A stretch of 64,000 nt of DNA from Trichoplax sp. H2 (GCA_003344405.1 NOWV01000014.1:806001-870000); one strand, 5' to 3'. Numbered from the stretch's first letter, positions 20,386-44,222 are shown. Numbers and translations: made by a program. The notes: generated from the letters alone by a model not told the origin.

Positions 20386-21684
20386 AAATATGCACTGAAA
20401 AGTAAGATAAATCGTTAGTGATGAGAGCATTGTCAATGTTACTGTCTCGATTTTTGAAAGTCGCTAAACGTACCTATGTTTTTCTATAATGATTCCTTTA
20501 AATCATTCTGATCTTAACGAGATTTAATGCATTTAACTGCGTCATAGTATCGAACTATCGATTAATAAAAATTTTCACATTTTATTTCTATTTTGGCTAA
20601 CGTAGAAATCCAAAACCCTAATTATAGAATACGTATTAGAATTGAGGTAGAAATAGTGAAAAATCAATACAAATTTGAGTTAAAAATGACCATGTATATT
20701 GTCCTAACTAATAAAATTGAAGCAGTTTATATCTGGTAGTGTCCAGACTGAGATTGAAATTTAAAACTATAAGAATATTCATGCAGGTTTGTAGAGAGAC
20801 ACCGAAAAAGAAGTGAACATTCATTTTTTAATCGTAAACCATAAAAATAATTGCATGTAAGGTATCATTTAATACGCTTCTTAATGCGATCTCAAGTTCT
20901 ATTAGTTATATCAATGATGATTTATATCCATAGTTCTATTTCAGTTAAATTTTCGTAATAGAATAGTTGCTGCTGCACCTATTATAATTAATAGAGAATA
21001 ACTTTATGTGTGGTCGAGGCTATCAATGAACTGATAATTTTAATTTCAATAGCTATGGCTGATGAATAAGAGGCCCTTGATCTGTCTAGCCGTGCATGTA
21101 TATCTTTTGTTGGCTGCAAGCTAATCAGTTACAACAGCTACTATTACTTGAACTATTTATTCATCTTATTCATCCATTGCTGTTAATTTTGTTATGCCTT
21201 TCTCACGGATTCAATTTGGTTAAGGTCAAAAATTAGCGCAGCAAAAAGTAATTGTCTTTACTCAGGGAATAATAAGGCTTTTATTAGTAATACTCGTATA
21301 AGATGAATTTTAATGAGTCTTCAGTAGGAATAGACTAAATTTTACAGATCGTATTGCCAATACAATCTTTAGAACTACTGTATTCGATAATATATCAATG
21401 AACAATATTTAATTACACGATAAGCCACGCCAATGACTTTAACTTTCACACAGAGCTAAAACATTCTTACAAATATTCTTTGCTATGCTAATGTTATACT
21501 TGAGGTAAGGAAATTGGAGGAATTTACTATATCTTTCCTTAGTTATTCAGAACTATCAAGGTAGTGATGGAGATATACAACTTTTTGCACTCACACTTCT
21601 GGTCATGGACTAATGCTAATTCATTTTATATCGTAAAATTTTAAAATTAGCTAACTATTATAATAAATGGACTAAAGAGTGTCT

Positions 21685-24600
21685 TTAGAGATCATCGTCT
21701 TCTCCGCGATAGACAGGATTGTCTAAATCTTTTGATTTAGACTTCAGAATACTTATATTCTGAGATCTTTGTCCTAGAGAAAAGCATTTATACTTAAAAT
21801 TAGTTTGGGGATAGCTTCAAAGATCATATTAGATGACCTTAAAAAGATGTGTAACATCTTTTGATATAGTTACTTGGATCTTACCGAATTTCAGACTTTG
21901 CCTGTTAATTTTAACGCCTTCGATCATCCTGAAAATTTATATAAGAATTAATTATTTTAAATTTGAGCGGTACTTTGTAACACTTATTAATAATATGATA
22001 AATAATTTCGTATTTCATTTCTCGAGTAGAAAATGCAACTGATTAACTTTAAGTTGCAAAAAAATCTTTTTTTCAAAATTACCCTTTCTTTCTTAAGAAA
22101 ATGTATGCTACAACAACGATTAGGATTGCAACTACGCTTCCAATTGCAATTCCAACATAAGTACCGGCTAAAATCCAAAAACAGAACAAGATAAGACATA
22201 CTTCAAAAGAAATTTCTATCAATTTAAGAGATTGCCATAAATTTTACCGTTTTGTGTAGTCGCACTTTGACAGTTATCCCCGCCAAACCCTCCAGCACAG
22301 CTGCAATTTGATTTTTTATCATAGTAATCAGTCATAAGTATAAATCAGCTTCATTATTGTAAATCAAGTGACTTATCAATAGTTCATTTATGTCGTATAT
22401 TGTGATAACTAATTACCTGCAAATAGGTCTATTATTATTCATGCTGCATTGGCCATTATTGCTGCAATATCCTTGTGAGCATACAAAACCTGCAATCATA
22501 AATCATCAATCTTACGTTTAGACAGGAACTTTATTTAATTTGGAATTGTTCTGTAGTTTTCATCCATTACTTTATTTCTACGTACTTATATCATATATTT
22601 GTGTTTCTATAAGTTGGATATTAGTTGCATTAAAAAAGCGGCATGAATACGCTCCGTTATCGCCGATCGATAGTGGACTAAACACTAAATAAGACGTAAT
22701 TACGGATTTTTGATCGCTAACTACTTGAATAATTTCGGTAGTATTTCCAGCTGTAATAGGAACTTTATTTTTAGTCCAAGTGATAGACGGCAAGGGACGT
22801 CCGTTAGCTTGACATCGGAGACTAGAGTATGATCCAACCATAAATGTACTAGTATTTGAGGTAATGGATACCATCGAAATTGGGAATGCTAAAAATTGAA
22901 GCATAAGTTAAAAGGATTTATATCATTCATTAATAATGTGGCTTCAAAAATCATAAAATTGAATGAAATCTTTAACTTACGTGATAGCTGATTCTCGCAG
23001 TTGGTTCCAGTAAAGAGTGGGTCACAACTAAGAATAACAATAACAGATTGTCAGTTTTTATGCAACTTGTTTATAAAGGTATACATGCCTAAGTTTGACG
23101 GCTTACGTTTTAAAATCAACTATTGCTATTAAGCTGATAATTTTAATAGTACATCAATATATCAGCACTATTACACCAACATACTGTATATTGTATAGTT
23201 AGCGTTTTACCTGCATACTGGCCCAGAACTTCCTGAAGTACATTGGCCTTGCGAATTACAAAAGGCCGGCGAACATGCAAACTCTGTAAGTGTAGTTGTT
23301 AAATTATAATAGCAGAATGAATCGACTTTATTCGTTGTTAAATCTAAAATTATAACTTTTCTTCGATCGTATAACGTCAAAATCAAGTTAACATCATATG
23401 AATAGCTTAAGTTTTGTGAAATTAGATATAGAAAGCAAATCAAAACTTACGGATCGTAGCCACTGCAATTTCTACTATGTCAGTGTTACCGCCAGTATTA
23501 TTATTACCGATGACTCGGCATCGGTAACTACCAGCATCACTTGGTACAACATTTGAAATTACCAGGTTCATAATAGATTTTTGGTTAGAGTTTAAAGGTG
23601 ATAAAAAGGTTGTGAGACGACCTCCAATCGAGATTTGATTGCCGTTATGTAACCATACAAATCTTGGCCTTGGTCGAGCTGTTGCTTCGCACTGTAAACC
23701 TATGGTCGTTCCAACATAGTATCGTGTAACATTTGATTTCCCAGTAACGATACTGATAGGTAGATCTATAAAATTAGCAAATGATAGCAATTAGCTATTG
23801 CATATTTATAATAAAGCCTTTTACTTGTATAACTAATTCTTTACCGTAGACATTATTTTAGTACATGTAGTGAAGTATGAGGAAAACACTATAGTATGAT
23901 ACACGTGTGCAAGTGGAGGGTGCTGAAATTGTATTTTTCTCTTACTAAATAGTAGTAGATCATAGTTTTATGTATCTAGAAACCTGCTATTATTTCATAG
24001 CTAAATTGTTTAGGCTAGCTTTGGATATGGAAAGCAGTAATATATAACTCCCATACAGTCTTAGCTGATACTTATATATCAAATATACCACCAAAGTGGA
24101 TAATGAAAAGCAAAAGTAAACTGAATCTCGTTACATGATTTAACAATTTAAATTTTATAAAAGATTATTACTATTCCGTTCAACAGTTAAAGAAATCATA
24201 ATATGTAAGTTTAAACTCTTTAACCAGAATTTATCAAATATAAGTATAATTACAGTAAGATTGGGAGTTAAATCAAAATACAACATAGCTTACTTGGCAA
24301 TACTGTCTGGCATTGGTTTCCAATGACTCCAAAATTGCAGCTTCAGTAGATAAAATGAAAATTGAACATCAATTCCGATGTTGGATTACAACCTTAAAGT
24401 TATTTGTTACGAGTTTTTGTATGATGATACGGAAACTGTCGGATTAATTAATTAGAATTGAGATATGTATCTACGGTACCTGCATTGCAGCAAATCACTA
24501 CCGGTGACTGTACTGCATATTCCATTATTATTGCAGAATCCTGTAGAACATGACATTCCTATTTGCAGCAAAATTGAGTTAATGTATTAATATTTTAGAA

Positions 24601-27600
24601 AAAGAAAACCGCTTATTTACGTACAAGAAATTCGTAATCATTTATTTAGTGAAATATTTTGTCTAGTACTGATCTAGCATTTATAATTTTGAAATAGCAG
24701 TAAAATATAGTTTGAATGTGATCAAGGCTATAAACTTATTTTGATAATTTGATACATATTAAAACTTACTTATGGAAACAATGGAGCTTTGAGCTGTTGC
24801 TCCGGTTTGATTATATTTCGCGGTACATCTAAAATCACCGTTGTTGCTTAATGTTAGGTTACTAAAGAGCAGGACAGATTTGGCTACTGTTTGATCAGCC
24901 GATGCTGAGTATGTGATCATAACATTACTTCCAGTAGAAATTGAAGCTCCATTCTTAGTCCAAGATAGTCCAGATATAGGGCGAGTTGTAGTTTGACAAG
25001 TTAGAGCGATATAGGCACCGTAAGTATAAGTAGTAGCGTTGCTTGTTACAGACACAGTAGATAATGGGATATCTAAATAGTATAGTACAGTAGTAGATAA
25101 ATATGTAAATATTGCGATATTTATAATGAGCTAGACCTTTCAATTTTAGGAGCATTTATACTTTATGTTCAATGAAGAAGCATCAGCCTTATAATTTGGC
25201 TTACTTTGTATCTATATTTATATGTTATCTGCAGCAACTTTTAGTAATAGATTTTTCTAATGTAAAAACAGCTAGTAGAGTATAAATACAGACGTTAAGA
25301 AAACATACCTGGCAGTCTAGTCTGGCAATAAATGCCGGTGTGGTAAGCATTACAACTAGAATATGTGATAGTAATGACGAAATAATGCGTAAGTTGTAAT
25401 TTTATTTAAAGAAATTATACAAACTATATTTTTATGTAACTGTTATGCTATGTTAACCAGTGGAAAAAGTTTTTGATAGATTATTAAAGATACACAAGTC
25501 TACTGGTAGAATTCATATACATAATATTAGCTATACACTATAGTACCTGCAGATCGGGATCGAATTAACCATATTACATTGACCATTATTATTGCATAGT
25601 AGAGATGAACATGAAAGACCTAACATAAATGAGAATATAGTAGTGTTGGTGATACGTAAAGATTGTGATGGTATATGCATTAGATTTAAAATAGAAACCG
25701 TGTGAAGACTTAGCAACATGAGTAATTTATCAAACTAGGCATCGTAAGCATAGCTTTTTAGTAATGATCGGATCATTCTACATCAATTATGGCTATTATT
25801 TTAGCTATAGATTACTGTATTTACTAGATATTTATTAAATTACTGAAGAATACTGTATGCAGTACGAGTTTAAATGGAAATAAACTGAACAACATGATTG
25901 AGATTCTTGTACTACATTGTAAATTTATCGATAGTCTATATTATAAGCTATTATATTAATTTTCATAATAATTTGATAACGTTTATGATATAAATTTACG
26001 TAGATGATATTTTATTTTTAGGATTGAAGGCTTATAAAATTTAACACTTAACTATGTGTAGTTTCATGATAGAACTTACTAATATTAATGGTGTTGCTTT
26101 TAACCACTTTGCTCGTCGAAGACTGCCTTGCAGAACAACTGTAAGCTCCATTATCATTTATAGATTGCACCATGAAATACATAGAGGATCTAGCTTGGTA
26201 GTAGTTGTTACCAGGGATGGAAACAATGTTATATTTATTTCCTGAAGTGACCAGAGCATTATTTACGGTCCAGGTAATGGTAGATAATGGATAAGAGAGA
26301 GCTTCACAGTCTAATCCGGCGTATTGGCCAACAGTATAGGTAGTAAGATTGGACTTGACAATAACGCTTCTTAGCGGTACAGCTATTCCAAATATCAAAG
26401 AAAATATTGGTGTTTTTGGGTAGATTTACACTTAAGTTGAATAAATCATAATAATTAACATAGAATAGTACACTATATTTGTTAGATTATTGATTAAAAT
26501 TTGATATTTTAAAACTGAATCCAATCGATCATAGTTTTGATTATTTACTGAAATACGAATACTTACGGGGTAAAGCAGATTCGCAATAGGTTCCAGTATA
26601 GCCAGCATTACAGCTACTGTTGATGTTAATGTGAAAATAATATTATTATATCTATAGGTAATATTTAATATGGTTTATGTAGTATGTTATAATACCTGCA
26701 AGATGGCGCATTGTCGGACATGACACATTGACCTTGGTTGCTGCAAAACTGTGGTGAACAGCTAAATTCTGAATAATGAAAAGTTTCATATCACAGTTCG
26801 TAAAAATTGATATAATAGGTTTGAAAATTTCGTGCATTGCAAAATAAGCGTCAAACTTTCATAAATATTATCATAAATGAAATTTATATACTGTAAAATA
26901 TTATTTATGGGTTCAAGTCGTTTCGATATGCTTTGCTTGAGAATTTGAGGTAAATATAGATTGTGCAGTATTGACGTCTTACATATAAAATCAGTACACC
27001 TAAAGTAGCGAATACACCAGTATTCTGTGATTCTAATTAGTTCACATCCATGCTTACAATAGATGGTACTTACGAAGGTTGATGAGATTGCTTTTTACTA
27101 CTTTGCCTGAGGAATCTAAACCACTGCATGAGTAGACACCGTTATCACCGCGCTTTAGGCTTTTAAAATAGAGTACCGATTTCGCGATATAACCAGACGT
27201 AGTACTTGTCACAAATCCAATGTTGGCATTAGATATGATTTGAACATCGTTTTTAGCCCATAAAATACTAGATATGGGATAGGAATAGGCCATACATTGC
27301 AGCGATAAATATTGGCCGACAAAATATTGCGTAGCATTGGCTGCCAGCATAACTTGAGATAAAGTCATATCTGTTTATACAGGTTACAATATGTTAGAAC
27401 AGCTAGAGCAATTGCCTAATAATAATTTAGTGAAGTATTGTTTAATCGAAATGAACTTCGCAAGCTGATCATTTTATTTTATCTAGGCCTGATGTAAAAC
27501 CAATTAAACCTACGAAATTATAAACTCTTTAGATTTACCTTTGACGCAGGCATTTCCGTTCCAATATCCAAAATCACATAAGCATGCATAAGTCTTCGTA

Positions 27601-30600
27601 GGCTTCAATATGTCTAAACATGTTGCTCCTGAATTGCCACATGGTGAGCTAAGACAGGCACTGATCTCTAAATTTCGACATTTATTAAAAAGACAATTAA
27701 ATGAAATTTATTCAAAATTGCTATAAAAATAAAAGTGATGCATTGAAGTCATTTTATAGAATATGGATTCAATTAAGATTAAGGTAAGAGAATTAAAGTG
27801 TTTGCGTTATTACTGTAGCACTGAAAGAATTCGCATTTACTAACCTGTCTGGCAGACGTAGCTGTTATTAGTTCGTGATTGTTTAATGCAGAATGAAGTA
27901 ATTTAATTTGATTTAGCACAAAAAATATCTTAACTAATTTATAAAGATAGCTTGATTTTAATTCTTTAATATTTAAGGCAATATAAGACTGATATCATTG
28001 ATATCTATTTCTAGTTACTATGGTACATACTTGGATGGCAGTTGGTTGGCACCATTGAGGTTGGGGTCTAATGGCTGATCTGTATGTTTAGAGAGAACTT
28101 TATAAGTACACGCCGAAAAATTTTAATTCATAATCGAAAATTTCATAAAATAATTATTTTCTTATTATGATTTATCAATCACAGTAGTATCAGCAAATTA
28201 CCAACGCAGAATGCTTGAGCACCCATAGTAGTAGAACATTGACTTATATCCCCGGCAAGATTGCTTTGGGTGCAATTGGCGAGATTTGGCTCTTTACCGG
28301 TACACCCAATCTTTCCAATGATTGTGGTCATAGAACTATTACCACAGCATTGGCTACGTAATTGCGTATCGGCAAATCCAAGTTGTCGACATGCTACTTG
28401 AGCATCTTGGAATTGCCAGAAGCTATTACAAACTTTACCCCAAGTCTGGCCATTGTATACTTCGACCAAACCTTGACTATATATTGATGAGCCTGTCAAG
28501 CGGATTCCAATGACTGTAGAATCTATGATTGGAAATTTTAAAGAGAAAATTGTGATTCATCACATCTGAAATTAGAAAGTGGCTATAAGTACCGCCAGAT
28601 ACACTAGGAAAGTAACATGATTACTTAAAATTACAATAAGTTTTAGGCTAGTTGTTATTTTGAAAGATCTTTTAATGCTTTATCCGTATTGCTATATTTT
28701 AGTCTGATAATCTTATTGTCGCTCAATCTTACAAAATAGACAATTATATCCGCTATAGCCTTCTGGACACTGGCAAGTATAATATCCGACGTAGTCTTTA
28801 CAAACGGCTCGTCCACCAGCTACAGATTGGCAAGGGTTGTTGGCGCACTCGTTAATATCTACAAGCAATTAAACATGATCATGTAGACGTTATAAAGTAG
28901 TCGATATTAAGGACACAACGTATTTTATTTGATGAAAATGTAGCATTATCATATATCACTTAATTTTCAGTACGCTCATTTTTATGCAACTTCTAGCACA
29001 TTATGAGAATATCAAGTATTTATTTTTAATGATCGATTAAATTTTTGAATTTTACTTTATATTAAGTACCGGTTTGGCAGTCTTTTCCAGTAAAGCCTTT
29101 ATTACATTGACAAATATACTCATCGTCCTGACTCATGGCGACACAAACACCGCGATTGTTGCAACTTTGTTTATTTGTGTAGCAGTAATGATCTGTTTAA
29201 GAACAGAGAAGAAAAGCAGCTTTTTACAACTTAGGATAAGAAAATTTACTTTCTAAATTACTAAACTATTAAGAAAGGCCATAATAAATGATATTTTATG
29301 ATTGATTTCGCAACTATTACTGTGGTAAAGATAGATTTATTATAAATTGATAAGATGTAGCTTGCATTAATGTGATGTCATGCAGTAACTTTAGTTATTC
29401 ATAGAGTAATATAAGATAACCCTTATCTGCTGTCATTTCCTATATAACTTAAATCGCTTCTATTAGACTTACTGCTACATTTGATGGCCAAGTCCATGTC
29501 ATGGGTACAATTAGCGAGAGCTGGGACTCGGCGGGTGCAATCACTTGGAGATGTTTCGTGACCAAAGCATTTTAAGCTATCAAATTGTATTTTTTCTTTG
29601 CCTTTTCCATAGATAGGGAATGAATATACGTTGGTCGCATTACCGTAACCAGCAGCTCTACATAAGACTGATGCAGTAGTAATATCGACATTATTGTTAT
29701 TGCATACTGTGCCCCAAGCCCCATTTTGGTAAACTTCGACGAATCCAGTACCACTAATGATGCTAGTACCACTTATTCGTACAGCTCCATTTGCTACAGG
29801 CCCTAATTGACAGTTGAGACCATAATATCCTGGAGGACATTCGCAATAGAAAGATTCTGCACCCAGTATGGTATGGCAGGTTGCATTTGGAGCACAAACG
29901 CTTGCATTGCACCAATTTCCTTGGCATTCGATGCTAGCAACTTCAAGATTTCCACAGTTTGCAACTCCCCAAGCACTATGCTTACATAAAGATAATGCTG
30001 TTTCAGTGCCTGTGCAGTCAAGATCATCTAGCCAGTATGGGGTCACCTTTGAGCCATATTTTGAGCAACAGGCAAAGTCCTTAGCACTCGCAAATCCAAG
30101 TTGCCTACAGGCAACGTTTGCATCCTTAAGATCAAATCGGTCATCACAAACTGATCCCCATCTACCTTTGAAAAATACTTCAAGATTTCCAGAGTATCGA
30201 TTTGGTCCACCAAGCAGCCTTAATGGCTCAGTGTCAGATACTATAAAAAAAATATTATTTCTTAGCGTGATCTTAAACCAACTCCTTTTGATTGAAGATA
30301 TGTGGCTTTACAATAATTGAAAATTTTAAGATAAGCCATGCTTAAATATTACTTACATTGATTGCATAGGCTGCCAATGAATCCGGGTGTACATTTGCAA
30401 GTAAAAGCAGATGAAGATATTTTAACGCATGTGCCATAATGGCAGGGGGATGAATAGCATGGATTGTCTGGTAGAATTTAGAATTTAACGTAGGTGTAAA
30501 AATGCAGTTATAGTTCGTATGTCTAGCATTGAGTTGATGAATGGAAAGGCCAATACAAATTACATTCTACCTGTACAACTAAGACCAACAAGATCCGTGT

Positions 30601-33600: not shown

Positions 33601-36600
33601 GCTAACTCCGACATCATCATCGTGATTGCATATTGATTCGGCATTATTAGTATCATATGAACATTCGCTCAACAAGAGCTCAAAACCAGAACATCGAACA
33701 TTGTATAGACCAATTTTGCCAGTACCAGAATCATAGAAGGAGCCCGAGGTAATTGCTCCTGCGTAACCACGCTGTTGGCAGACAACATCTGCAGCTTGAT
33801 TAGTGAAGTTCTTTTTACAAACAGTAGTCCAAATGCCTTGCAGGTATACTTCAATACGACCTCGACCGAGATTACTTATAGACTCTGGGATAATATTTAC
33901 ATCGCCCGTCTTAGGTGGACCTATTGAATTGCAAGATTTAAATTTAGCGATAATAAATCAGTGTCGCTGCGGTAGATTCAATTTCTGGCTATTTCTGCTA
34001 ATAGCATTTCAATTTAATTATATTAATCCATTCTATAGCCATCAGAAAGTGCTTAGGTAGTGTAATCTACGATAATTAAATTACCTTAGCTCAAAATTAT
34101 AGCATAAACAGTAGCTTTGCAAGCATTCTATCGTACTAATGGACGAAATCAGTATTTCTATTCGACATTTTACAATCGGGCCCTCTAAGCTAAGATATAC
34201 TGTTTAACCGATATTCGTGCACTTAGAATGGAAATTATGACTGCAAGGACAGTAATTAAATTAAAATAACCTTACCATATTGACATAAATTGCCGTAATA
34301 TCCACTGGAGCACTGACATTGGTAGTAATTCTTGTCTACTGTACTATAGGAATTTACGCATTTGGCACCGTTCATACATGGGCTGCTATCACAGACGGAT
34401 ATGTACTGGCATAAAGGGCCATAAGTACCCGGTTTACATTCACAATATTGAAAGTAGTAGGTCTTGCCATCGACCACCGAAGTATTAAATTTGCAAGTCC
34501 CGTTAACACAAGTATTTGGAGAGCATGTTGTATCTAGAGGATTAAAAAGCGGAAATGCAGTTACAAGCTTGACAATATTCCTATAATACCAAATTAGAAG
34601 AATTAGGCCAACTTACTAGAACATTGCACTTTTGCACGGCTGCTGCAACTGTAAGCATTTAAACCGTAAGTAAAATTACACTGAGAGAACTTCGTTGCAG
34701 TACTATTACATTTCATATTGTAAACCCAAACTTTCTCAAAAGTATTACTATCTGTGTAGCAGCATGAATGCTTAGTTGATGTTGTGTAACCAAGTTCTCG
34801 ACAAATAACATCGGCTTCAAGTTTTGTCATCTGAGAGTAGCAGAATGCTCCCCAAATGCCATCATGATAAATCAATGGAGCACCTTCAATAGTATTACTT
34901 GTCGTAGTCGATTTAACTAGTTTAACTGTCCCATCTTCTGGCGAAACTAAAATTGAAAATATAGTAGAGAATGAAATATCATGCAGAAAAATAATTTTAA
35001 TGACATCCTATCGGTCTTTCTGATCAGTCTAGTGATACTAAAATAAGTGCATTGCCTAATATTTAAATGAAAATTGGATAATTGTGATTTTCGTATAGAA
35101 GCTGCTGATACATTCGGAATAATAACATAATCAAAGATTATGCTTAGTCCTCGTTGCTAAAGATAGTAGTCTACTTAATTTTAGAATTGAATAATTGTAT
35201 ATCAATTGATCGATTTTACTTAAACAAAGTCTATAAAGATCTAATCTTTAATGCTAAACTGCATAAATATCTGGTAATATAATGAATTCACTGGATATAG
35301 CAGCTTTAGGTGAGTTTATATTCGCTTAGAGGTCAAAATTTAGGTAGTTACCTATTGGTGATTCACACTTGGCACCGGTAAAACCGGATTTGCAGTAGCA
35401 TAGTCCATAGAAACCTTCAGAAGTACAGTACTTATTTTGGGGTGCGCAGCTTTGTATTTCGGTAGCATCGCATCGGCTTCCAGCTACAATACAAAATAGA
35501 AGTCAAGGGAAATTTGATAATTTGATATACATTCCGTATTTCGGGGATTTTATAAGGACATTTTCACGAGTTAGTGAAAGAACATACTAAGACACTCGAT
35601 GGATAAATCTTGAGAATGATCTTGACAGTCTTGTGGAACATTATACCAGCCCGCACTATTGCATTCATCAATGGTAAATTCTTTGCCTTCGCAGGTAACT
35701 TTATTTACTATCGTTGGGCCATAACCGAAAAATCTGGTTGCAACAGCTTTTGTTGAGGAGTACGTGCGAAATCCTAATTGTTGACAAACTTGTCTAAACG
35801 TTAAGAAGCTAGAACTAGAACGACAAATAGTTCCCCATGTCCCTTGATAGAATACTTGAACAATTCCACCCGTGTTACTTGTACTAGCTAATCGGAGATC
35901 TCCATTTTTTGCATTAGCACCTAAATAGGAAGGCGTAAAATGAAGGTAAAATCAATTCGAAATAACTAAAGTTATACAAGATAGTTTTGTCTTATTTGTA
36001 AACAATTCCAAATCTTGCAACTTTACATACCTGAGCAAGCAAGACTTAAGTCCCACTGATGAGTGCAACCACCTTGATTAGTAACCGCTACAGCTGGACA
36101 GTCTTTAACTGAATTTTCAGTACCAGTACATTTAAGCTGATAGATAGTAGCAGTATTACCTTGGCCAAATACTGGCGTTGGGAATGCATTAGCAAATATA
36201 TAGCCCATTTGTTTGCAAATGACTTTCATATCTTGGATAGAAGATTGGTTAAGACAGACTGTAGACCAGTTATTATTTAAATAAACTTCAACACGTCCAC
36301 TTAATGGGTTACTGCCGTTGACTAATCGAACAGAGCCTGAAGTTGGAACTGTATAATGTGCCAAATATAGAAGAAGAATATGAATCCAATTTATTACAAT
36401 CATCTTATATTTTTATTAAACTACAAATGACCTTTCAATTATGATAACTACGGTAAATGCGGGTTAGAATATCAGATAAAATTGCGTTTCTTACATGTGT
36501 TTACGATTCATTAACAGTATAAACACATATACTACAGTCATAAAGTCGAGAAGTGAAAGTAAAAGGCTTAAATTAACTTTCATGTTCACAAATTTAAGAT

Positions 36601-39600
36601 AATATCGTCAAGTTGAATACGTACATGTCGCATCTTGACAATTTTGGCCTGTAAATTGACCGCTACATTTACAAGAATACCCGTAAAATTTGTTGGAGCA
36701 GGTGCCACCATTCGTGCATGGATTTGACGAACAAGAATTATTAGCTTATAAAAATGAAAAGAAAATTTCGAAAGGTTTCAATTTCACTCTTCATCCACGA
36801 TAAACGTATCTCAGACTAACTATTTTAATTTTTATCAGCTTACTTGCGCAGTAAACTCCAGCATAACTAGAGAAACATGCCACAGTATTATTAGGATTAC
36901 TACCAGGACAATCAAAGATGGATGATTCATAGCCTGAGCATTTTAAGTTTCTCATTCCACTTGTAATTAACGGGCTTCCAAATGCAGCACTGCTAGTAAT
37001 GCTAGTAGCACCAGCAAAACCCATTTGTTGACATACTACATGAGCATCGTAGAGCGTGAAATCACTGGAACAAATTGGTCTCTGTTCATTATTGTAGAAA
37101 TATTGAACACGTCCAACATTGGGATGATAAGGTCTTCCAGCGACAAGCGTTATTGATTTATTCGTGAATGGCCCTATAAACAGTAGCAAGAAGATTAGTT
37201 GCTCATCTATTGATTTTAACATCTTTATCTGATCGATCATTGCTGCTCTATCCTATAATATGATCATTATTTATAATGGATACGCAATCCCCAGAGTAAA
37301 ATGTCATTTAAAGTGTTCATAAGAAGACTTAGAGAAAGCTGATCTATCAGATTTCGCAAACAGCATACCTTTTTCACATCTATTTCCTGCATAGGAATAA
37401 CTACATTTGCATGTATATGAAACGGTACCGACTGGCGTGCATTGACCGTTATTTTCACAAGAATTGGGATTGCAAAAATTTCTGAGCTGACATTTGTCTC
37501 CATAGTAACCTTGTGGACAGTGACATTGCGCGATTGTTGCAGGAATACCAAAAACAGTGGTATGATTGAGAGAGCAAACACCGTTGTTAAGGCATGGATT
37601 AGTTTGGCAAGTGGAATCTACAAGTTATTATTTTGATAAAAATGAATTTCTTTTGAAAAGCATTTGCATATTAGCAATTAATCAGGGAAATAAATTATTC
37701 AATTTAGAAATATGAAATGTTATTCGAGTTATATACTTGTTAACATGATCTATTATTTTGATGAAAGTAAATTTCGTTTTAAACCAATTGCATACTAGCT
37801 ACGGTATTAATTAGCGCGTTGACTTGTTCAATTTAGAAATATGGAATGCTATCCTAGCTATATACTTACTAATACACTCTACTCTAAATCGATTAAAGCA
37901 AGTAAATGTGTTTTTTCCATAAGTAAAGGAGCAGTTAGCAATTGAGCTTTCGCTACCAGTGCATGTCATCGTATTGATCCAAATTTTTCTTGAAGGGCCA
38001 GAGTAGTCGCAACAGTAAGATCTTTTATAGCCTACAGAATAGCCTAATTGTTTGCAAGCCATAACAGCGATGGAGTCATCGTTTGACGTACAAATTGATC
38101 CCCAAACACCGTTGTGGAAAATTTCAATTGCTCCTTTTGCTACATTTAGTACAGATGCGTTGGAGGCTTTATAATAGTCATAAATGCGAACGGAGCCTTC
38201 TAATGGTAGAGTAACTAGAGTGAAGTAGCAAATAACAGTTATAATTTAAGAAAGCATCATCATGGTTCTGTTGTACGAAAATGAAATTTCTATTTATATT
38301 GGGTAATCTTGGCTTTATGCCTAACTCTGAATAGTAGTTCTATTTTAAATTTATTAATCGCTTACATTACTTTTAAATTGAGCACGATAGAATCATAGAA
38401 TATGCATTATGATATATAAGTACAATCAAAATTAAGCGCATTTTAGTGATTTAAAGAATAATTTTGTGAATTGTAATAATATACGGTACTATGCTAGATG
38501 AATTCTATTTCGTTTCTTAACAGATTTTTTTTTAGGCTAAATAGGCCTAAATATTCATAGCATGAATAATTTTAGATTCTGATTGGAAAAAGAGCTACCT
38601 ATTGGAGTCGTGCAGTTTGGACCAGTATAGCCGTATTTGCAAACACATCGAGTGGAAAAAAATCCAATTGAACGACAAACTTTATTTTGCGCTGCACAGG
38701 TCTTATTCTTTTCCGTATTGCAGTTGTTTTGATCTATGTTTTATAAGTGAATATCGTTCGAAAAATTATTTACAATAAATAGATAAATAGTTTCATAAAA
38801 CATCAAAACAATTACTGTAGGTTATTTGGGCTGAATGTGCATGCTGAGATTTGCAATGAGCCATTTTTCAGTATTATGATAGGAATCCTCTTAACAAGAA
38901 TATTGAAGTAAAATACTTTGATAGATATTTGTAATATCTTCGTTCTTTGTCGGTGTTTCAAGTAAAGAATACAAATAGTGTATATCGCTATTGGTTACAC
39001 TTTCATTAATTCTGCTTTCGATTTTTACTGGATTATTTTAGGCAGTACCTTTACGGTTAGCCTTGACCGAAATTTATTCAGCTTTATAAAGTACTTACTT
39101 CTACATGTGACAGAAACTGCATTGCTAGTTGAACAAGAGTCGGAAATAACACCAAAACCAGCGTAGTTACACATCAAGATGGAAATTTCATCGTCAAGGC
39201 AACGTGTTCTACCTAGAACATATTTTGTAGCGGTACTCGTTCTTGTATATGCTGATGCGCCAGAGTATCCAAGTTGTTGACATATAACGCTAGCCTCTCC
39301 AAGGCCAAATGTGCCGAAGGAATAGCTACAGATTTCACCCCACGTACCATTGAAGTAAACTTGGGCTAATCCTACTCCAGGTTTGACGGAATTAGCTAAT
39401 CGTACGTCACCATCTTGTTGGGGTCCTATCAAGCATAACTTTTATTAGAGGGTCAGCTAATTTTTCCGCAACTTGATGTTTGAAACTTTGAACACAGCAG
39501 TAAAAGCAAGAATGAATTCAAAACGAGGATATTGCATCGTAAAATTAAAATAAGCATAGCTTAATATGACAAACTGTATCTTATTCGCAGGCGTCACGCT

Positions 39601-42600
39601 CGAATAATTGTATTTAAAATTAATGTCAATGCAACCCTACTTCATGAAGAAGTCATCATTTCCGTGGGAGTGAAATATGAAACTTACTGGTCTGACATTG
39701 AGTTCCTTGATATGGATGTAGGCATTTGCAGCTGTAACTATTACCTACTGGCTGACAAATTCCCCCATTCATACACGGGTTCAGGCCGCAGGGTTGAACT
39801 AATTAAGTTGAATAATTATAAATAAAACGTGTAATAAGTAATGCATAAACTTAACGACTTAAATTTATAGGGAAAAATTGCTTTCTAGGGGCGTTGGAAC
39901 CATATCATCGTTTTAAGCATTTTATAAAAAAATCCACCAAATTGCTAATTAATACCATATTTACTGTCCATAAAATATAAGTTCTAACAATGTTTGATAA
40001 TTATTGGCATCTTACTGCAGCCTTTAAGCACACAAAACCTTAATTATAAAGTATCATACTTATGCAGTCGTATTTAACCTCTACTTTATTACAGAATAAC
40101 TCTGTCGTGATATGCTAATCGGCTACTATACACAATTTAGCATTTGCTATTTATGGTAATCAATTTCTAGCATTAATCTCTACGACTTTTACGGTACTGC
40201 CGATATTAGCAAATTTGTATGTTATTCTGTATTACTTATTTGATAACCGATTTCACTACAATGGTAATCGGTTCGAAAAATAGAATCGATATGATTGCAG
40301 TTTCAGCAGTGACTACAAAGGTTGTCGGTATTAAGTCTATAGGGAGACAAAATCTGCAGGAAAGTTCTAGCTCTTGTACCCGGATGAAATTACTTTAGGG
40401 TGCTTTTATATTATAGCTTAGCAAACAAAGTATTTTGTTTTGAGGAAGAAGCCTAGTACGCACGGTAATACAACATTTCTACTCCTAAGGTTATCGTTGC
40501 TAGCAACGGATTTATTAGTTCTTATTTTAAAGTAGAGGAGTATGATGGATACTGTAGTGAAACTATAACCGGCTATTGGATATACTCGTATGTAGAATCC
40601 ATTACAATTCTTTGGCTCTTTCTAATTGAGATACCAAGTCTACTATTTACTGGTTTAGTGACTTTAGTTTTATTCAGAAAATGATGTTTTATCGTGGTAC
40701 TCACAAGTGCTGCAATTTTGGCCACCATAACTGTTAGGACATGTACAAGTGTAGCTACCACCAGCTTTATCTATACAAGTGCCACCATTCATACAAGGAT
40801 CATTTGCACAGGCAAGCACTTTAACATGAAACGAGATAAAAATTTCATTATTCTAGGTCATTAATACTATAAGAATGCTACCATCACAGTCTATCTTTAT
40901 TCAATGGCTGTTAGAATATAGAAGATCTATAATAACTTGTAGACATACTTGTTGCACAATTGCTACCCGTATAAGGAAAAGGGCATGCACAAGCATAGGT
41001 GGAACCATTCCCTTGGTTGGTACAGTTGCCACCATTCATACAAGGATTAGTAGAGCATGCTAAAGCTAAATGTAAGAAAATAAATTCTACAATAAGTTCT
41101 GCTTAAGGAAATTGTTTTGTTTTAAAATCAATCTTTGAGCGTGAGTAAAAGAAGATGTGGCTTTAGTTCGATCAGTTTAATTCAATTTTATTAAATGATT
41201 GATTTAGATGCCTTATCGTTTATGATAGCTTATATTTATGCCTGCATAATTAAACTTACTTATTTCACATCTTTGGCCAGAAAAAGGGTGTGAACAGTTA
41301 CAACTATAGGCTTTACCGTTGTATGTAGTCATACATCTTCCACCATTTTGACAAGGGTTTGGAGAGCATGAGCTTGTACCTGAGATGAAAGAGAATAGAA
41401 GCAATTAAGCTCTAAGTTATGTTCATACGCGTTTAAGCGAATTCAGTATGAAGGTTGGTGTATGGCTATACTGAAAATACAGCGTATGAATATTTTAAGT
41501 TGATCAAGTCTTTTAAAATTAAAGTAAAAGCACTTTCATATGCAAAAAAGTAATCTTTACGGTGTCTGAATATTGATAAAATACTTATAGCCACTTTATG
41601 CATCAAAAATTCACAATTATTTCAAACACTCGTATCTTTTAAGGTTTGCTTTCCAAACCATAATGGCTTAAAAATAATAAGCAACCAACATACTTGATTG
41701 ATCACAGTTTCGGCCAGAATTTGCAGAAGGACATGAACAATAATATGTTGAGTAAGAAAAGTAATTATAGCATAAGCCGTTGGTACAAGGGTTGTTACTG
41801 CATGAACCTGGACATTTCTGATCTAAAGTTAAAATATCAAGTAAATATGAATATTAAATTTATTGGGTTATTATAAGTGCTATGCTTATTCTTATTTTGT
41901 AATCACAATAATACTTCATTGCCTACTTGGTGTATTAGCGGTTGCATTATAACATTCTGGATTGTTGACACCAGGAGAACAGTAGCAGAAGTAGCTTGCT
42001 GCTCCAGAAGTAGTTAGAGAAATACATTTACCAACTTGACATGGGCTGCTGTTACATGGGCTATTTCTGCCATTGGAATCTGATACAAATATTGCAATAC
42101 AGATGTTTAGATAGCCATGTTACTCAATAATACTAATTTATGATTGTTAGCTATCGTTATCAATTTAAATTAGTATTATATTTCTGAAATAACATTTATT
42201 ACTGATGAATAAATAATTAAAAGATGCATTTGGTAAAGATATTACGCATAATCAAGCTTTATTGATAAAATTAATGGAAATTTTTCAGTTTCACTGCAGA
42301 TGTATATGCGATCTGTAACATTACGATGTCACTGTTTTATTAAACTCCGATGTTATTAAAGGGAGTTATTTTAAAGTAGTAGTTTTGTATTGTATTCGTT
42401 ACTATAAAGTGGATATTAGCATCTTGAAGAAAAGCTTTTCTTTTATTTAATAAATTAATTCACTACGTTTGATCGTTCATTTTCATTTGCTGCTAAATAC
42501 AGTAGCCCAATTTACTTCTTCTAACTACTACATTAATATAACAGATTGAAGATATTGAGGTGATTGATAGAGTAGGATTTATAATTTTTAGCCGTATACC

Positions 42601-43150
42601 TATGAACGTCTTACTAAATAAAATCACTAGTTATCATCTACCTGTTTGGCAGTTAGCGCCAGAAAAGCCATTATAGCAAATACATGTTGGGGTTCCATGG
42701 ATGTTTGCACATTTGCCTTGCAAGCAAGAGCTACCACCACATTCTTGTGAAGGACTTACTACATTAATGTTTTGAGGGAAATAACAATTAGACTTGATAA
42801 ACAGCTTACAATAATCAAAATTATTTCCATGTAGATGTTCACTTCAAAGGTGTAAGAAATACATCGAAAGTATTAAGCAATTGGTAGTAATACAATATAA
42901 ATTATACTATGCCAGTGTTGCAAAATAGAAAGGTTACAACTTCACGAATCAACTCCCTCTACTTCAAATTTAATTTGACAGTTTAATGCATGACATTGTA
43001 GGTATACTGTTTACTTAATTAGACGCTTATCATACTAAATATTTCGAGCTAGGTTTACAAGTAGGGATTAATTAAGCATTGCCATAAATGTATTGATACT
43101 CATCAAATGCTTCGAATACCTACATCTGCTGTTTTATTAATTTTATATTG
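21685..43150 (-). CDS. Gene C: type I membrane receptor EGF7-(SRCR13/EGF16)-(Ig-EGF)5-TM-NPxY tail
   Basis: Possible exon 43120-43150 ([10 protein letters not shown]). EGF 42642-42758, ~41927, ~41694, ~41261, ~40949, ~40704, ~39708. SRCR ~39099-39426, ~37870-38214, ~36844-37173, ~36031-36349, ~35588-35921, ~34616-34946, ~33591-33920, ~32868-33192, ~32156-32470, split ~30831-31055 + 30571-30678, SRCR-EGF-SRCR 29473-30240, and ~28202-28522. Ig ~27074-27370, ~26079-26381, ~24770-25072, ~23451-23766, ~22585-22888, each followed by a two-exon EGF. TM 22083-22167 ([28 protein letters not shown]). Tail 21885-21928 and 21685-21773, ending [13 protein letters not shown]. Phases are consistent in the exons checked. 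The ATG/signal-peptide exon was not identified. Confidence 0.9.
22083..22167 (-). CDS. Gene C transmembrane exon
   Basis: 85-nt phase 1-2 exon encoding a hydrophobic run followed by the RKK stop-transfer signal. Same length and phases as the TM exons of A (57644-57728) and B (48345-48429). Confidence 0.9.
28731..28858 (-). CDS. Calcium-binding EGF exon of gene C
   Basis: [10 protein letters not shown]...[12 protein letters not shown] matches the D-x-N-E-C and C-x-D-x4-Y-x-C consensus. Not in the ORF track. Confidence 0.8.
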
Positions 43151-44075: not shown

Positions 44076-44222
44076 GAGACTGTCACGGAAAGGGTGTTAT
44101 CCCTGTGTTACCGTAAGTAGTATAGAACTACCATACAGTAGATCTCCAGGTGTAGTGGAGCAAGGCATAAATAATCTATTAGTTTAGTGCAATAGTTCGC
44201 AACATAAGTTTGTGACAGTCTC
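44076..44222. mobile_element. MITE-like element (147 bp) with 11-bp terminal inverted repeats
   Basis: GAGACTGTCAC (44076-44086) and GTGACAGTCTC (44212-44222). No clear direct TSD. Confidence 0.4.

Follow-up and report, generated by a model that had tools for sequence, protein, structure and literature searches.

Gene Extent and Exon Structure

The 64,000-nucleotide stretch of Trichoplax sp. H2 DNA analyzed here (GCA_003344405.1 NOWV01000014.1:806001-870000; the window, from whose first letter positions are counted) raises the question of whether an SRCR/EGF array and an Ig-EGF part with a transmembrane (TM) helix form one chain, and what such a chain would do. The initial annotation had read a single chain of 13 SRCR, 28 EGF, and 5 Ig domains, a TM helix, and an NPVY tail, and these exact counts were confirmed by Pfam on the minus-strand frames and by the spliced model. 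The locus, called gene B here, is a single, genuine gene from a Trichoplax-type placozoan and is expressed. It has 53 GT-AG exons on the minus strand (42758..21685), which give a single open frame of 3,165 codons in the spliced model, and its product is a membrane protein of about 3,200 residues that is best explained as a single-pass type I surface receptor. Seven EGFs are followed by the 13 SRCR domains interleaved with 15 EGFs, a 22-residue linker, EGF23, five Ig-EGF units, the TM helix, and a 45-residue tail with NPVY. That the exons are phase-compatible and without an intergenic-sized gap was borne out: all 52 introns are GT-AG (79–906 nt, median 175), none is of intergenic size, exon entry is in phase 1 for 46 exons and phase 2 for seven, and the one open frame has no terminal exon between the SRCR and Ig parts. 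The upper end had been placed at 43150, for which there is no support: no coding sequence was found between 42843 and 43150, and the outermost solid exon opens at 42758.

The Pfam scan was made on 45 raw minus-strand exon frames, with further counts on the spliced model. Several exon calls come from a DP model, which a small 49-nt exon escaped. The exons beginning at 42758, 42079, and 41822 are predicted only, supported by the collinear exons of a paralog, gene A, and by the total length of an RNA contig (the runs X6, X10, and X12 are introduced below). The N-terminal EGFs and the SRCR/EGF array are encoded as follows.

42642..42758, -, EGF1 exon; DP model; collinear gene A exon 54% identical; predicted
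41927..42079, -, EGF2 exon; DP model; 60% identity to gene A; predicted
41694..41822, -, EGF3 exon (7 Cys); DP model; 68% identity to gene A; X10 contig reaches in by length; predicted
41260..41379, -, EGF4 exon; Pfam EGF 1.7e-8; loose contig end at 41065 in X6, X10, X12 equals 41260-41289
40949..41065, -, EGF5 exon; Pfam EGF; joint 40818>40949
40705..40818, -, EGF6 exon; Pfam EGF 5e-9; joints 39798>40705, 40818>40949
39688..39798, -, EGF7 exon; Pfam EGF 3.5e-9; contig joints
39099..39425, -, SRCR1 exon (6 Cys); Pfam SRCR 2.8e-14; joints 38733>39099, 39424>39687
38599..38733, -, EGF8 exon; joints 38214>38599, 38733>39099
37870..38214, -, SRCR2 exon (8 Cys, CC pair); Pfam SRCR 5.7e-16; contig pieces X10, X12
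37369..37617, -, EGF9-EGF10 exon; Pfam EGF, 2 stretches; contig arithmetic
36844..37173, -, SRCR3 exon; Pfam SRCR 4.1e-16; contig arithmetic
36625..36744, -, EGF11 exon; Pfam EGF; contig arithmetic
36031..36348, -, SRCR4 exon; Pfam SRCR 1.1e-20; 99% identity to P0002 residues 207-313; contig arithmetic
35588..35920, -, SRCR5 exon; Pfam SRCR 1.2e-17; contig pieces X6, X10, X12
35352..35483, -, EGF12 exon; Pfam scan; contig arithmetic
34617..34946, -, SRCR6 exon (8 Cys); Pfam SRCR 3.8e-15; X10 piece
34276..34533, -, EGF13-EGF14 exon; Pfam EGF; contig arithmetic
33591..33920, -, SRCR7 exon; Pfam SRCR 2e-21; X10 piece 33589-33918
33298..33417, -, EGF15 exon; Pfam scan; contig arithmetic
32869..33192, -, SRCR8 exon; Pfam SRCR 9.2e-20; 99% identity to P0002 residues 313-420
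32552..32662, -, EGF16 exon; Pfam EGF; contig arithmetic
32156..32470, -, SRCR9 exon (8 Cys; CDD pair kept); Pfam SRCR 1e-16; cation-site scoring
31878..31997, -, EGF17 exon; Pfam scan; contig arithmetic
31172..31282, -, EGF18 exon; Pfam scan; contig arithmetic
30831..31055, -, SRCR10 first-part exon; Pfam SRCR profile positions 4-76; contig arithmetic
30571..30678, -, SRCR10 second-part exon; Pfam SRCR profile positions 64-100; contig arithmetic
30357..30467, -, EGF19 exon; Pfam scan; contig arithmetic
29473..30240, -, SRCR11-EGF20-SRCR12, 768-nt exon; Pfam SRCR 6.5e-48, 2 stretches; pieces X10, X12; PDB best match CD163 3e-145
29070..29192, -, EGF21 exon; Pfam EGF 8.9e-9; joint 28858>29070
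28733..28858, -, EGF22 exon (DINEC); Pfam EGF_CA; contig joints
28202..28522, -, SRCR13 exon (8 Cys); Pfam SRCR 3.1e-18; joints 28079>28202, 28522>28733 in X6, X10, X12

RNA Evidence for One Transcript

Spliced contigs from three RNA runs of three studies (X6, which is recorded RNA, X10, and X12) were compared with the window. The remaining exons, from the linker to the 3' end, are listed here.

28031..28079, -, 49-nt linker exon; joints in X6, X10, X12; splice sites read; absent from first reading and DP model
27845..27861, -, 17-nt micro-exon (YVCQT); 15 inter-joint letters in three runs, unique match 27847-27861; context cag, exon, gttagt
27539..27667, -, EGF23 exon; joint 27370>27539
27074..27370, -, Ig1 exon; Pfam Ig_3 2.1e-8; contig joints
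26696..26768, -, EGF24 first-part exon (73 nt); joints 26616>26696, 26768>27074
26567..26616, -, EGF24 second-part exon (50 nt); contig joints
26080..26382, -, Ig2 exon; Pfam Ig_3 1.7e-8; contig joints
25547..25619, -, EGF25 first-part exon; contig joints
25309..25355, -, EGF25 second-part exon; joint 25355>25547; contig arithmetic
24770..25072, -, Ig3 exon; Pfam Ig_2 7e-9; contig arithmetic
24480..24558, -, EGF26 first-part exon; DP model; contig arithmetic
24294..24340, -, EGF26 second-part exon; DP model; contig arithmetic
23451..23765, -, Ig4 exon; Pfam Ig_3 2.3e-13; contig arithmetic
23211..23283, -, EGF27 first-part exon; DP model; contig arithmetic
22981..23027, -, EGF27 second-part exon; DP model; contig arithmetic
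22586..22888, -, Ig5 exon; Pfam Ig_3 6.7e-12; contig arithmetic
22417..22489, -, EGF28 first-part exon; DP model; contig arithmetic
22248..22300, -, EGF28 second-part exon; joint 22165>22248 in X12; contig arithmetic
22083..22167, -, transmembrane helix exon, RKK after helix; KD-19 2.99; joint 21927>22083
21885..21928, -, 44-nt cytoplasmic exon; joint 21927>22083 in X12; splice sites read; length demanded by contig arithmetic
21685..21773, -, terminal exon, coding part, stop TAA 21687-21685; X12 piece 21358-21772; sequence read
21358..21684, -, 3' UTR, to contig limit; X12 contig end

Across 28522-27074 the contigs show canonical joints (27370>27539, 27669>28031, 28079>28202, and 28522>28733), each within one contig in X6, X10, and X12, so that SRCR13, the 49-nt exon, the 17-nt exon, EGF23, and Ig1 are spliced in frame in contigs of all three runs. 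One X12 contig, 9,990 nt long, begins in the 3' UTR (21358), extends past 41065, and spans both parts; by length arithmetic it has 138 nt left upstream of 42758, and at 21358 it continues into 24 letters that match nothing in the window, which we read as adapter. The X10 contig has 194 extra letters that by length reach into the EGF3 exon. The model of gene B reproduces 15 of the 15 contig coordinates listed, save for 2-nt edge ambiguities. The initial annotation lacked two small exons between SRCR13 and EGF23 (28079-28031 and the micro-exon 27861-27845). The RNA contigs revealed these two and also the 44-nt exon 21928-21885, which NPVY requires to fall in frame.

The SRCR and Ig-TM parts are thus one spliced transcript, since the contigs join them into one chain rather than two genes. 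A secreted SRCR/EGF protein next to a separate Ig-EGF-TM protein might be suggested by an Ig-EGF-TM-only paralog (gene C, P0093) 5 kb upstream, but this arrangement has a negligible probability and is already contradicted for the major transcript by the in-frame joining in three runs, by the single contig across both parts, and by the lack of any stop codon or terminal exon between them. Nor does the gene B Ig5 exon occur in any public protein of 176–2,000 aa. The public annotation of gene B is badly fragmented, the T. adhaerens model TRIADDRAFT_21116 being a patchwork of four of its SRCR exons.

The 5' End

Two candidates for the start were considered.

42760..42830, -, candidate 1, ATG at 42830 (MEIIL... 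ORF); best signal-peptide-like ORF in 42759-47880; adjoins EGF1, out of frame with EGF1
45484..45547, -, candidate 2, first coding exon MWSDLVIILVVNFYFNNFHLT; gtaaaa donor, phase 1 (correct phase); predicted

The best donor of candidate 1, GTAAGT after 42760, would give phase 2 and not the phase 1 required, and the 64 coding nucleotides of candidate 2 fit inside the 138 nt left in the X12 contig. Since the signal-peptide ORF misses the frame of EGF1 by one base, the copy in the present assembly or strain might be a null allele, or its start mis-assembled, and therefore yield no secreted or membrane product. The end of the ORF lies 1 nt from the EGF1 acceptor, no donor of the ORF yields phase 1, and one-base differences between window and runs occur elsewhere (3 listed in 20 kb). 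We nevertheless consider this reading quite unlikely: the remaining 9.5-kb frame is intact, expressed, and constrained, 45547-45484 could serve as a separate first exon with the right phase, and gene A too requires a separate one, its EGF1 being entered through a phase-1 acceptor without an adjacent signal-peptide ORF.

SRCR, EGF, and Ig Domains

The 13 SRCR domains score 35–162 bits against PF00530 (gathering cut-off 26.1), which places gene B in the SRCR superfamily. SRCR10 is split over two exons (35.0 and 22.8 bits), and the other 12 of the 13 are unsplit by introns, eleven lying on an exon each and one 768-nt exon holding SRCR11 together with SRCR12. Group B SRCR domains have eight cysteines including a C1-C4 pair, each domain on one exon. 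In gene B eight domains have six cysteines and five have eight; in the latter five, the two additional cysteines sit together as CC in mid-domain and not at the C1 and C4 positions of the customary group definition.

The 28 EGFs of the spliced model comprise 27 cores of the form C-x-C-x(5-14)-C and one C-x-x-C variant (EGF24), and 170 cysteines (28 × 6 + 2) lie beyond the SRCR and Ig segments. Eighteen of the 28 have Pfam EGF-type matches at E ≤ 0.01 in raw frames, the others being divergent or exon-split. EGF22 alone carries a calcium-binding consensus (DINEC); the commonly used consensus patterns mark eight sites of the O-fucose type and six of the O-glucose type in the EGFs. The Ig domains belong to the I-set type of IgCAMs, with contactin, DCC, DSCAM, and Robo as best solved relatives, and only one segment is strongly TM-like (KD-19 of 2.99, next best 1.37).

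Among solved structures (PDB), the best relatives of the SRCR exon are CD163 (3e-145 over 9 stretches) and PIT54, CD5L, and DMBT1 (~1e-22). SRCR11 matches 6/6 residues of the DMBT1 SRCR8 cation site (D,D,D,D,N,E), and its spacings of 38, 22, and 5 residues equal those from D1020 to D1058, D1059 to N1081, and N1081 to E1086. It is the only one of the 13 to keep the full site; SRCR9 and SRCR12 keep 4/6 positions as D/E/N/Q, and ten keep at most three. In DMBT1 SRCR8, site 2 is formed by D1019, D1020, and E1086 and site 3 by D1020, D1058, D1059, and N1081, and binding was abolished in the D1019A and D1020A mutants (PMC7043408). Judged by these residues, SRCR11 would most likely use bound calcium to engage ligands that are polyanionic or microbial.

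Tandem Family and Strain Variation

Gene B is one member of a tandem gene family within the window. Gene A is collinear with it exon for exon, with 27 of the first 28 exons of gene B matched in order at 42–74% identity. Gene C is an SRCR-less copy that keeps the same stalk and tail; it bears the source name DSCAM in Trichoplax sp. H2, which is an automatic label and not membership.

Between gene B and the RNA runs, 102 differences are listed over 20 kb. Forty of these 102 include 39 coding differences, 21 synonymous and 18 non-synonymous, with no stop or frameshift among the 40 and 1-nt indels only in UTR or introns. The non-synonymous to synonymous ratio from these 39, roughly estimated, is ~0.3 per site and points to purifying, not diversifying, selection; on this comparison, and on the collinearity of gene A, gene B is under constraint. 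A self/non-self (allorecognition-type) or otherwise highly polymorphic recognition locus, with tandem paralogs supplying individual-specific variants, would accord with a cluster of diverged Ig and EGF paralogs and with the many strain differences, but it is very unlikely given this excess of synonymous changes and the scatter of the 40 along the gene rather than in one domain.

Cytoplasmic Tail

The 45-residue tail carries LDNPVY 7 residues from the C terminus, a hydrophobic-x-NPxY signal whose tyrosine, in NPVYRGE, is the only one; no Yxx-hydrophobic or dileucine signal was found in these 45 residues. The tails of gene B, gene C, and a further paralog, gene D, all end in NPx[YF]-x4-D-x-D-L (gene C, IYENPSFGTQDKDL then stop; gene D, ARENPSFGVQDKDL then stop), so that the motif and its distance to the acidic C terminus are kept in three paralogs whose tails are otherwise diverged. 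Genes C and D have NPSF instead of NPxY, and at position -5 gene D carries an R in place of a hydrophobic residue. Strains differ at K3151E and D3152E, just before the motif, with LDNPVY invariant.

Relation to Known Receptors

CD163, CD163L1, DMBT1 (SALSA, gp340), and CD5L resemble gene B in their long tandem SRCR arrays and include the best solved relatives of its SRCR exon, and DMBT1 SRCR8 shares the SRCR11 cation-site residues at identical spacing. However, DMBT1 is secreted and has CUB and ZP domains, whereas gene B has a TM helix and no CUB or ZP match in 45 frames. CD163-like class I scavenger receptors have an SRCR-only ectodomain, to which gene B adds 28 EGF and 5 Ig domains, placing it outside that class. 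Relative to vertebrate multi-SRCR proteins as a whole, gene B has interleaved EGFs and an Ig-EGF stalk and has lost the acidic site in most SRCR domains.

CED-1, Draper, and MEGF10 have an N-terminal EMI domain and a YxxL motif besides NPxY, and to our knowledge SRCR and Ig domains are absent from their family, which includes Jedi-1. Gene B has no EMI match, its only tyrosine is that of NPVYRGE, and its tail is much shorter; the X12 contig leaves only 138 nt for any N terminus upstream of EGF1. What gene B shares with these receptors is a long EGF-rich ectodomain, a single TM helix, and an NPxY tail, which in them recruits CED-6/GULP and clathrin for engulfment (PMC4055271, PMC3656144, PMC1762421).

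The LDL receptor family (LDLR, LRP1, megalin) likewise has EGF domains in the ectodomain and a DNPVY tail core with a hydrophobic residue at -5. The FDNPVY internalization signal has this form. The earlier description of the tail as LDLR-like holds for the tetrapeptide NPVY only; because no LDL-A repeat or YWTD propeller was matched by Pfam in the 45 frames scanned, gene B is not a member, and the likeness goes no further than the sorting motif. DSCAM-type IgCAMs share I-set Ig domains of the contactin/DCC/DSCAM type and a single TM helix with genes B and C, but in DSCAM an Ig array is followed by fibronectin type III domains, for which neither gene has a match, and the Ig domains of gene B alternate one-to-one with EGFs.

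A known kind of receptor occurs in the same phylum. Dataset S3A of Kamm et al. (2019, PMC6321704) gives Trichoplax sp. H2 45 SRCR-containing transmembrane proteins, with 18 locus tags in the "+EGF" column; these placozoan receptors share with gene B SRCR and EGF domains, a single TM helix, and a lineage-specific expansion, and are proposed endocytic scavengers. Gene B fits their definition of SRCR (IPR001190) plus EGF plus predicted TM (supplement 4 of PMC6321704). The Dataset S3A table and the accompanying text passages name no Ig domains, NPxY tail, domain counts, or tandem family. Gene B may add these Ig domains, the NPVY tail, and the tandem family to a known kind, of which Figure 2 of that paper may already draw an SRCR+EGF+Ig pattern.

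Proposed Function

The initial annotation had proposed an endocytic scavenger receptor in one chain; the one chain stands through the spliced contigs, and the function we still infer. That the gene B product is an uptake receptor, its SRCR array binding ligand and its NPxY tail driving internalization, has in our estimate an even chance, and an endocytic or phagocytic function is plausible from the predicted protein. The long SRCR/EGF array would be the recognition part, with the dual, DMBT1-type cation site of SRCR11 binding polyanionic or microbial ligands via calcium and the remaining SRCR domains offering diversified surfaces, and a rigid Ig-EGF stalk would keep it off the membrane. Upon ligand binding, the hydrophobic-x-NPxY tail would recruit an adaptor of the PTB type (from the Dab/ARH/Numb/GULP class) together with the clathrin machinery, and receptor and cargo would be internalized by endocytosis or phagocytosis, as with LDLR/LRP and CED-1/MEGF10/Jedi-1.

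Uptake is supported because NPx[YF] is fixed relative to D-x-D-L in three paralogs with diverged tails, because the motif is invariant between strains while the two preceding residues vary, and because SRCR11 keeps all six cation-site residues at identical spacing. Precedents are the NPxY-GULP-clathrin engulfment receptors (PMC4055271, PMC3656144, PMC1762421), the many placozoan SRCR+EGF transmembrane receptors proposed as scavengers (PMC6321704), and the phagocytic fibre cells of placozoans (PMC8639732). Counting against it are the 10/13 SRCR domains with at most three of the six positions kept as D/E/N/Q, the shortness of NPx[YF] (four residues, recognized as well by FERM domains of talin, kindlin, and the SNX17 type), the R at -5 in paralog D, a tail without Yxx-hydrophobic or dileucine signals, and the frame mismatch in this assembly between EGF1 and the MEIIL... 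ORF beside it. More tentatively, and we think doubtfully, the cluster could be a placozoan-specific modular engulfment system, in which an "Ig-EGF stalk + TM + NPx[YF]-x4-D-x-D-L" cassette stands alone in gene C and is coupled to a diversifying SRCR/EGF array in genes A and B, capturing bacteria or managing intracellular symbionts in phagocytic/digestive cells. If true, this would be a family of uptake receptors that arose independently of the LDLR and CED-1/MEGF10 families.

The gene B product might instead serve adhesion, since talin and kindlin FERM domains also read NPx[YF]: stalk and SRCR array would serve cell-cell or cell-matrix contact and the tail would link to actin via talin/kindlin, as in beta-integrin, internalization not being the main function. 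The sponge SRCR "aggregation receptor" is a precedent, the Ig domains are of IgCAM type, paralogs C and D have NPSF, and the SRCR-less paralog C retains stalk and tail; talin and kindlin attach to the NPxY/NPxF motifs of beta-integrin tails, and T. adhaerens is reported to have kindlin (PMC4325847). We regard adhesion as the main role as unlikely, since integrin tails carry two motifs with a defined spacer whereas gene B has one, and SRCR11 retains a scavenger-type ligand site. Adhesion and uptake are not mutually exclusive. Cargo uptake would be secondary in a signaling co-receptor, whose phosphorylated NPxY would recruit Shc/IRS-type PTB proteins or whose glycosylated EGF array would engage Notch-type partners. 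NPxY can serve as a phosphotyrosine docking site, and the O-fucose- and O-glucose-type sites would suit such partners, but signaling is most improbable: the Pfam scan gave no kinase, DSL, death, or TIR domain, the 45-residue tail has a single tyrosine, and paralogs C and D have in its place a phenylalanine, which is not phosphorylatable.

Transcript evidence for a single-chain gene model

The cysteine-rich open frames of gene B, the gene under study, are densely packed on the minus strand between 21.7 and 42.8 kb of an AT-rich window (GC about 0.30-0.36). A dynamic-programming (DP) gene finder, which used codon log-odds from Pfam-positive frames and generic splice scores with no one-gene prior, returned one chain of phase-compatible exons for the locus. 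We compared contigs of four sequencing runs from four studies (X6, X4, X10 and X12) with window positions 21200-41199. Three runs with locus sequence are recorded as RNA, X6 being a recorded RNA run, and X6, X10 and X12 each provided one contig with CT..AC joints, the canonical GT..AG when read on the minus strand. The X4 contigs have no joints and run through introns, which shows that the introns occur in unspliced or DNA-like sequence; X4 was treated as such sequence and given no other weight as evidence.

The comparison found 49 joints, against 48 introns predicted in the same interval, and the 15 listed with coordinates include all junctions of the disputed interval between the SRCR part and the Ig-TM part (28522>28733, 28079>28202, 27669>28031, 27370>27539 and 26768>27074). 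X12 record 2 is a single 9,990-nt contig that extends from 21358 to past 41065, where the sequence beyond the window match is identical to 41260-41289, the 3' end of the next predicted exon. A region of zero depth in X6 and X12 (39876-40542) falls inside a 906-nt intron. Three short exons are part of the corrected model.

28079-28031, minus strand: 49-nt exon, added from the contigs
27861-27845, minus strand: 17-nt micro-exon; the 15 letters between the joint sides match the window once only, and the splice sites were read
21928-21885, minus strand: 44-nt exon from the contigs, connecting the TM exon (phase 2) to the NPVY exon

The corrected model has 53 exons (entry phase 1 in 46 and phase 2 in seven) and 3,165 codons plus a stop, and its 52 introns are all GT-AG (79-906 nt, median 175). 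Cumulative exon lengths match 15 of 15 contig coordinates listed for X12 record 2 and X10 record 1, save for 2-nt splice-edge ambiguities, so three runs from three studies verify 21773..41065 as a single spliced transcript. Together with the 9,990-nt contig, these spliced contigs bear out the initial annotation, which had proposed a single chain from sequence alone; of the extent it had given, 21685..43150, the one chain is confirmed, whereas the upper coordinate 43150 is without support. The DP outer exons 21928-21874 and 19221-19153 were rejected because in the RNA contigs the last two exons are 21928-21885 and the one at 21773, and the DP 5' exons 46722-46677 and 44651-44607 were rejected as being without any support.

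Three exons at the 5' end are predicted and lie outside the 21200-41199 comparison.

42758, minus strand: predicted exon
42079, minus strand: predicted exon
41822, minus strand: predicted exon

The sole strong signal-peptide ORF within 5 kb upstream starts at 42830; it adjoins EGF1 in a different reading frame, and phase 1 is not reached from any of its donors. The exon candidate at 45547-45484 is weaker, with the phase that EGF1 requires. In the X12 contig 138 nt remain upstream of 42758, a length that fits either start. Single runs differ from the window by one inserted or deleted base at 21634, 34564 and 36458, all in UTR or introns; 1-nt differences at this locus therefore bear on the out-of-frame ORF at 42830. 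When the upstream regions of gene B and its tandem paralog gene A were compared, no block was better than E = 0.03 and there was no tblastx hit.

Domain architecture of gene B

A Pfam scan of 45 raw frames, made without a splicing model, detected 13 SRCR domains (one divided between two frames, two within one 294-aa frame), five Ig domains and EGF-type matches for 18 EGF units. The EGF total of 28 comes from counting the C4-x-C5 core; a greedy six-Cys pattern gave 21 by merging neighbours. The domain counts first put forward (13 SRCR, 28 EGF and 5 Ig) agree exactly with the exon table and these counts.

From the N-terminus the order (E, EGF) is EGF1-7, SRCR1, E, SRCR2, EE, SRCR3, E, SRCR4, SRCR5, E, SRCR6, EE, SRCR7, followed by E, SRCR8, E, SRCR9, E, E, SRCR10 (two exons), E, and then by SRCR11-E-SRCR12 (one 768-nt exon), E, cbEGF, SRCR13 and a 22-residue linker. 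The C-terminal part consists of EGF23, Ig1, E, Ig2, E, Ig3, E, Ig4, E, Ig5, EGF28, the TM helix, which is followed by RKK, and a cytoplasmic tail of 45 residues. Each of the five stalk EGFs is encoded by two exons, one of 73-79 nt and one of 47-53 nt, in phase 1-2-1, a shared pattern that points to internal duplication of the Ig-EGF unit. The calcium-binding consensus is found in EGF22 only, among the 28 EGFs. The linker, encoded by exons 27845-27861 and 28031-28079, has one unpaired-looking Cys (YVCQT) and looks like a half-EGF remnant. EGF3 has a seventh Cys, which adds to the linker Cys to make the ectodomain total even (268).

A canonical ligand site in SRCR11

The best solved relatives of the SRCR exon are CD163 (3e-145), PIT54, CD5L, LOXL2, SCARA5, CD6, MSR1, DMBT1, M2BP, MARCO and neurotrypsin. 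In DMBT1 SRCR8, according to PMC7043408, functional cations are held at site 2 (D1019, D1020, E1086) and site 3 (D1020, D1058, D1059, N1081), and binding is abolished by D1019A and D1020A. An alignment of the 13 SRCR domains of gene B places D, D, D, D, N and E of SRCR11 at these site positions, with spacings of 38, 22 and 5 residues equal to those implied by the DMBT1 numbering. Scored as D/E/N/Q, the site is kept at 4 of 6 positions in SRCR9 and SRCR12 and at 3 or fewer in the other ten domains.

SRCR2, 6, 9, 11 and 13 (exons 38214, 34946, 32470, 30240 and 28522) have eight cysteines each, the additional two being a CC pair in the middle of the domain (YCCD, SCCY, YCCG, ACCS and QCCG), which we take not to lie at the group-B C1/C4 positions. 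CC is also present in the raw frames of gene A that correspond to SRCR2 and SRCR6.

A tandem family with a conserved tail motif

Genes A, B, C and D are all on the minus strand, and the three paralogs of gene B are placed as follows.

about 14026 to below 1, minus strand: gene A, tandem paralog; runs off the window start, with its Ig-TM part outside view
52874-47887, minus strand: gene C, which is P0093 (RDD45647.1); Ig-EGF units, TM helix and tail
about 56930 to beyond 64000, minus strand: gene D; at least five Ig-EGF units, TM helix and tail; runs off the window end
about 57717, minus strand: gene D TM helix, VGSYVGIAIGCISATLVFIGIIIFLKKKG

In strictly collinear order, 27 of the first 28 gene B exons find their best match in a gene A exon (42-74% identity), the exception being the sixth EGF exon, whose best match is the same as that of the fifth. 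The domain order of gene A is that of gene B (N-terminal EGFs, SRCR1, E, SRCR2, EE, SRCR3, E, SRCR4, SRCR5 and onwards). About 4 kb without Cys-rich minus-strand frames separates gene C from gene D, and no SRCR exons were found in this interval. The public protein P0093 is named 'Down syndrome cell adhesion molecule' in Trichoplax sp. H2; it has no fn3 domains, and the DSCAM name is therefore an automatic label.

Gene C shows that the Ig-TM module can stand alone as a gene, and the case raised by the initial annotation against its own reading, that the SRCR part and the Ig-TM part are separate genes, was therefore a fair test. It is ruled out for gene B by the transcripts, which join the two parts.

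The tail of gene C ends in IYENPSFGTQDKDL and that of gene D in ARENPSFGVQDKDL (at about 56962), each directly before the stop. Tails B, C and D have in common NPx[YF], four residues and D-x-D-L at the C-terminus, the remainder having diverged. From typical residue frequencies, we roughly estimate that NPx[YF] would occur in about 1 in a hundred random 45-residue tails. In X10 and X12, K3151E and D3152E alter the two residues directly before LDNPVY and leave the motif unchanged.

In supplement 4 of PMC6321704, the near-consecutive tags TrispH2_002800, _002801, _002803 and _002804 are listed as SRCR+EGF receptors and _002802 is absent. These tags may belong to the cluster described here, and _002802 would then be gene C, which has no SRCR domain; the gap in the SRCR+EGF list is the pattern expected in that case. 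No mention of these tags was found in the literature text.

Proposed function

In the most likely mechanism, the gene B product acts as a type I receptor at the cell surface; its SRCR/EGF array would capture ligands, in SRCR11 at least through calcium-bridged polyanion binding, with the Ig-EGF stalk holding the array outward. The hydrophobic-x-NPxY tail would then recruit a PTB adaptor and clathrin, leading to endocytosis or phagocytosis. By analogy an uptake-receptor function is plausible: the tail route proposed resembles that of LDLR/LRP, and NPxY-adaptor-clathrin uptake is described for CED-1/MEGF10/Jedi-1 with GULP (PMC4055271, PMC3656144 and PMC1762421). Gene B lies outside the LDLR, CED-1, DMBT1, CD163-class and DSCAM families; their defining domains were looked for and not found. 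According to PMC6321704, placozoans are without Toll-like receptors, and their SRCR receptors are numerous and uncharacterised; gene B fits the catalogue of SRCR+EGF transmembrane 'scavenger receptors' in that source and belongs to this already catalogued kind, as a variant. Placozoans both eat bacteria and live alongside them, and their fibre cells are phagocytic (PMC8639732), which an uptake role of gene B fits.

The main rival to uptake is a role in adhesion, in which talin or kindlin would bind the tail; the Ig domains of the stalk are of IgCAM type, and kindlin is reported in T. adhaerens (PMC4325847). That gene B might instead be a hypervariable recognition locus is argued against by the strain differences: among the 40 listed of 102, 39 are coding, with 21 synonymous and 18 non-synonymous changes and no stops, and the three 1-nt indels fall in UTR or introns. 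These data fit moderate purifying selection on gene B. Gene B is of value for its corrected model, its place in a tandem family, its conserved tail motif and its one SRCR domain with an intact canonical ligand site; the transcript-verified model, the motif and this domain offer handles for first functional tests.

Public annotation and other matches

A search with the 255-aa SRCR-EGF-SRCR exon leads to TRIADDRAFT_21116 of T. adhaerens (P0002, 'partial', 743 aa). Residues 207-743 of this protein correspond to the SRCR4, SRCR8, SRCR11-12 and SRCR13 exons of gene B, with 99% identity at SRCR4, SRCR8 and SRCR13 and 79% overall at SRCR11-12, because P0002 omits the EGF between the two domains. By these matches the window is from T. 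adhaerens or from a strain almost identical to it. The model runs on into the intron after SRCR13 and is without any EGF, Ig or TM exon. Judged from these alignments, TRIADDRAFT_21116 is a patchwork model, and surveys of domain architecture based on it will miss the SRCR-EGF-Ig-TM architecture, because it skips all EGF, Ig and TM exons. Residues 1-206 matched nothing in the window above 52% identity, and the model appears to have taken this part from an exon of a different locus. These residues form an SRCR-x-SRCR unit that retains the CDD, LDD and N-C...E site residues. No mention of TRIADDRAFT_21116 was found in the literature text.

The first-EGF frame had no match among public proteins of 119-2,000 aa, and the Ig5 exon occurs in no public protein of 176-2,000 aa, its sole find being P0093. 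Among representative proteins the Ig4 exon matched mostly giant multi-Ig proteins. Four of the 150 listed were examined; P0146, P0174 and P0116 proved unrelated, leaving P0093 as the sole relative of the four. The Trichoplax SRCR proteins P0007 and P0026 were rejected as window genes, being at most 46% identical and from other loci.

Contigs of X6 and X12 leave the window match at intronic positions 24619 and 30268-30269 and continue for at least 255 letters of other sequence, which is absent from the window; the longest contig records compared were 15.9-19.8 kb. These loose ends could be an intronic repeat common to other transcripts, or a segmental copy elsewhere.
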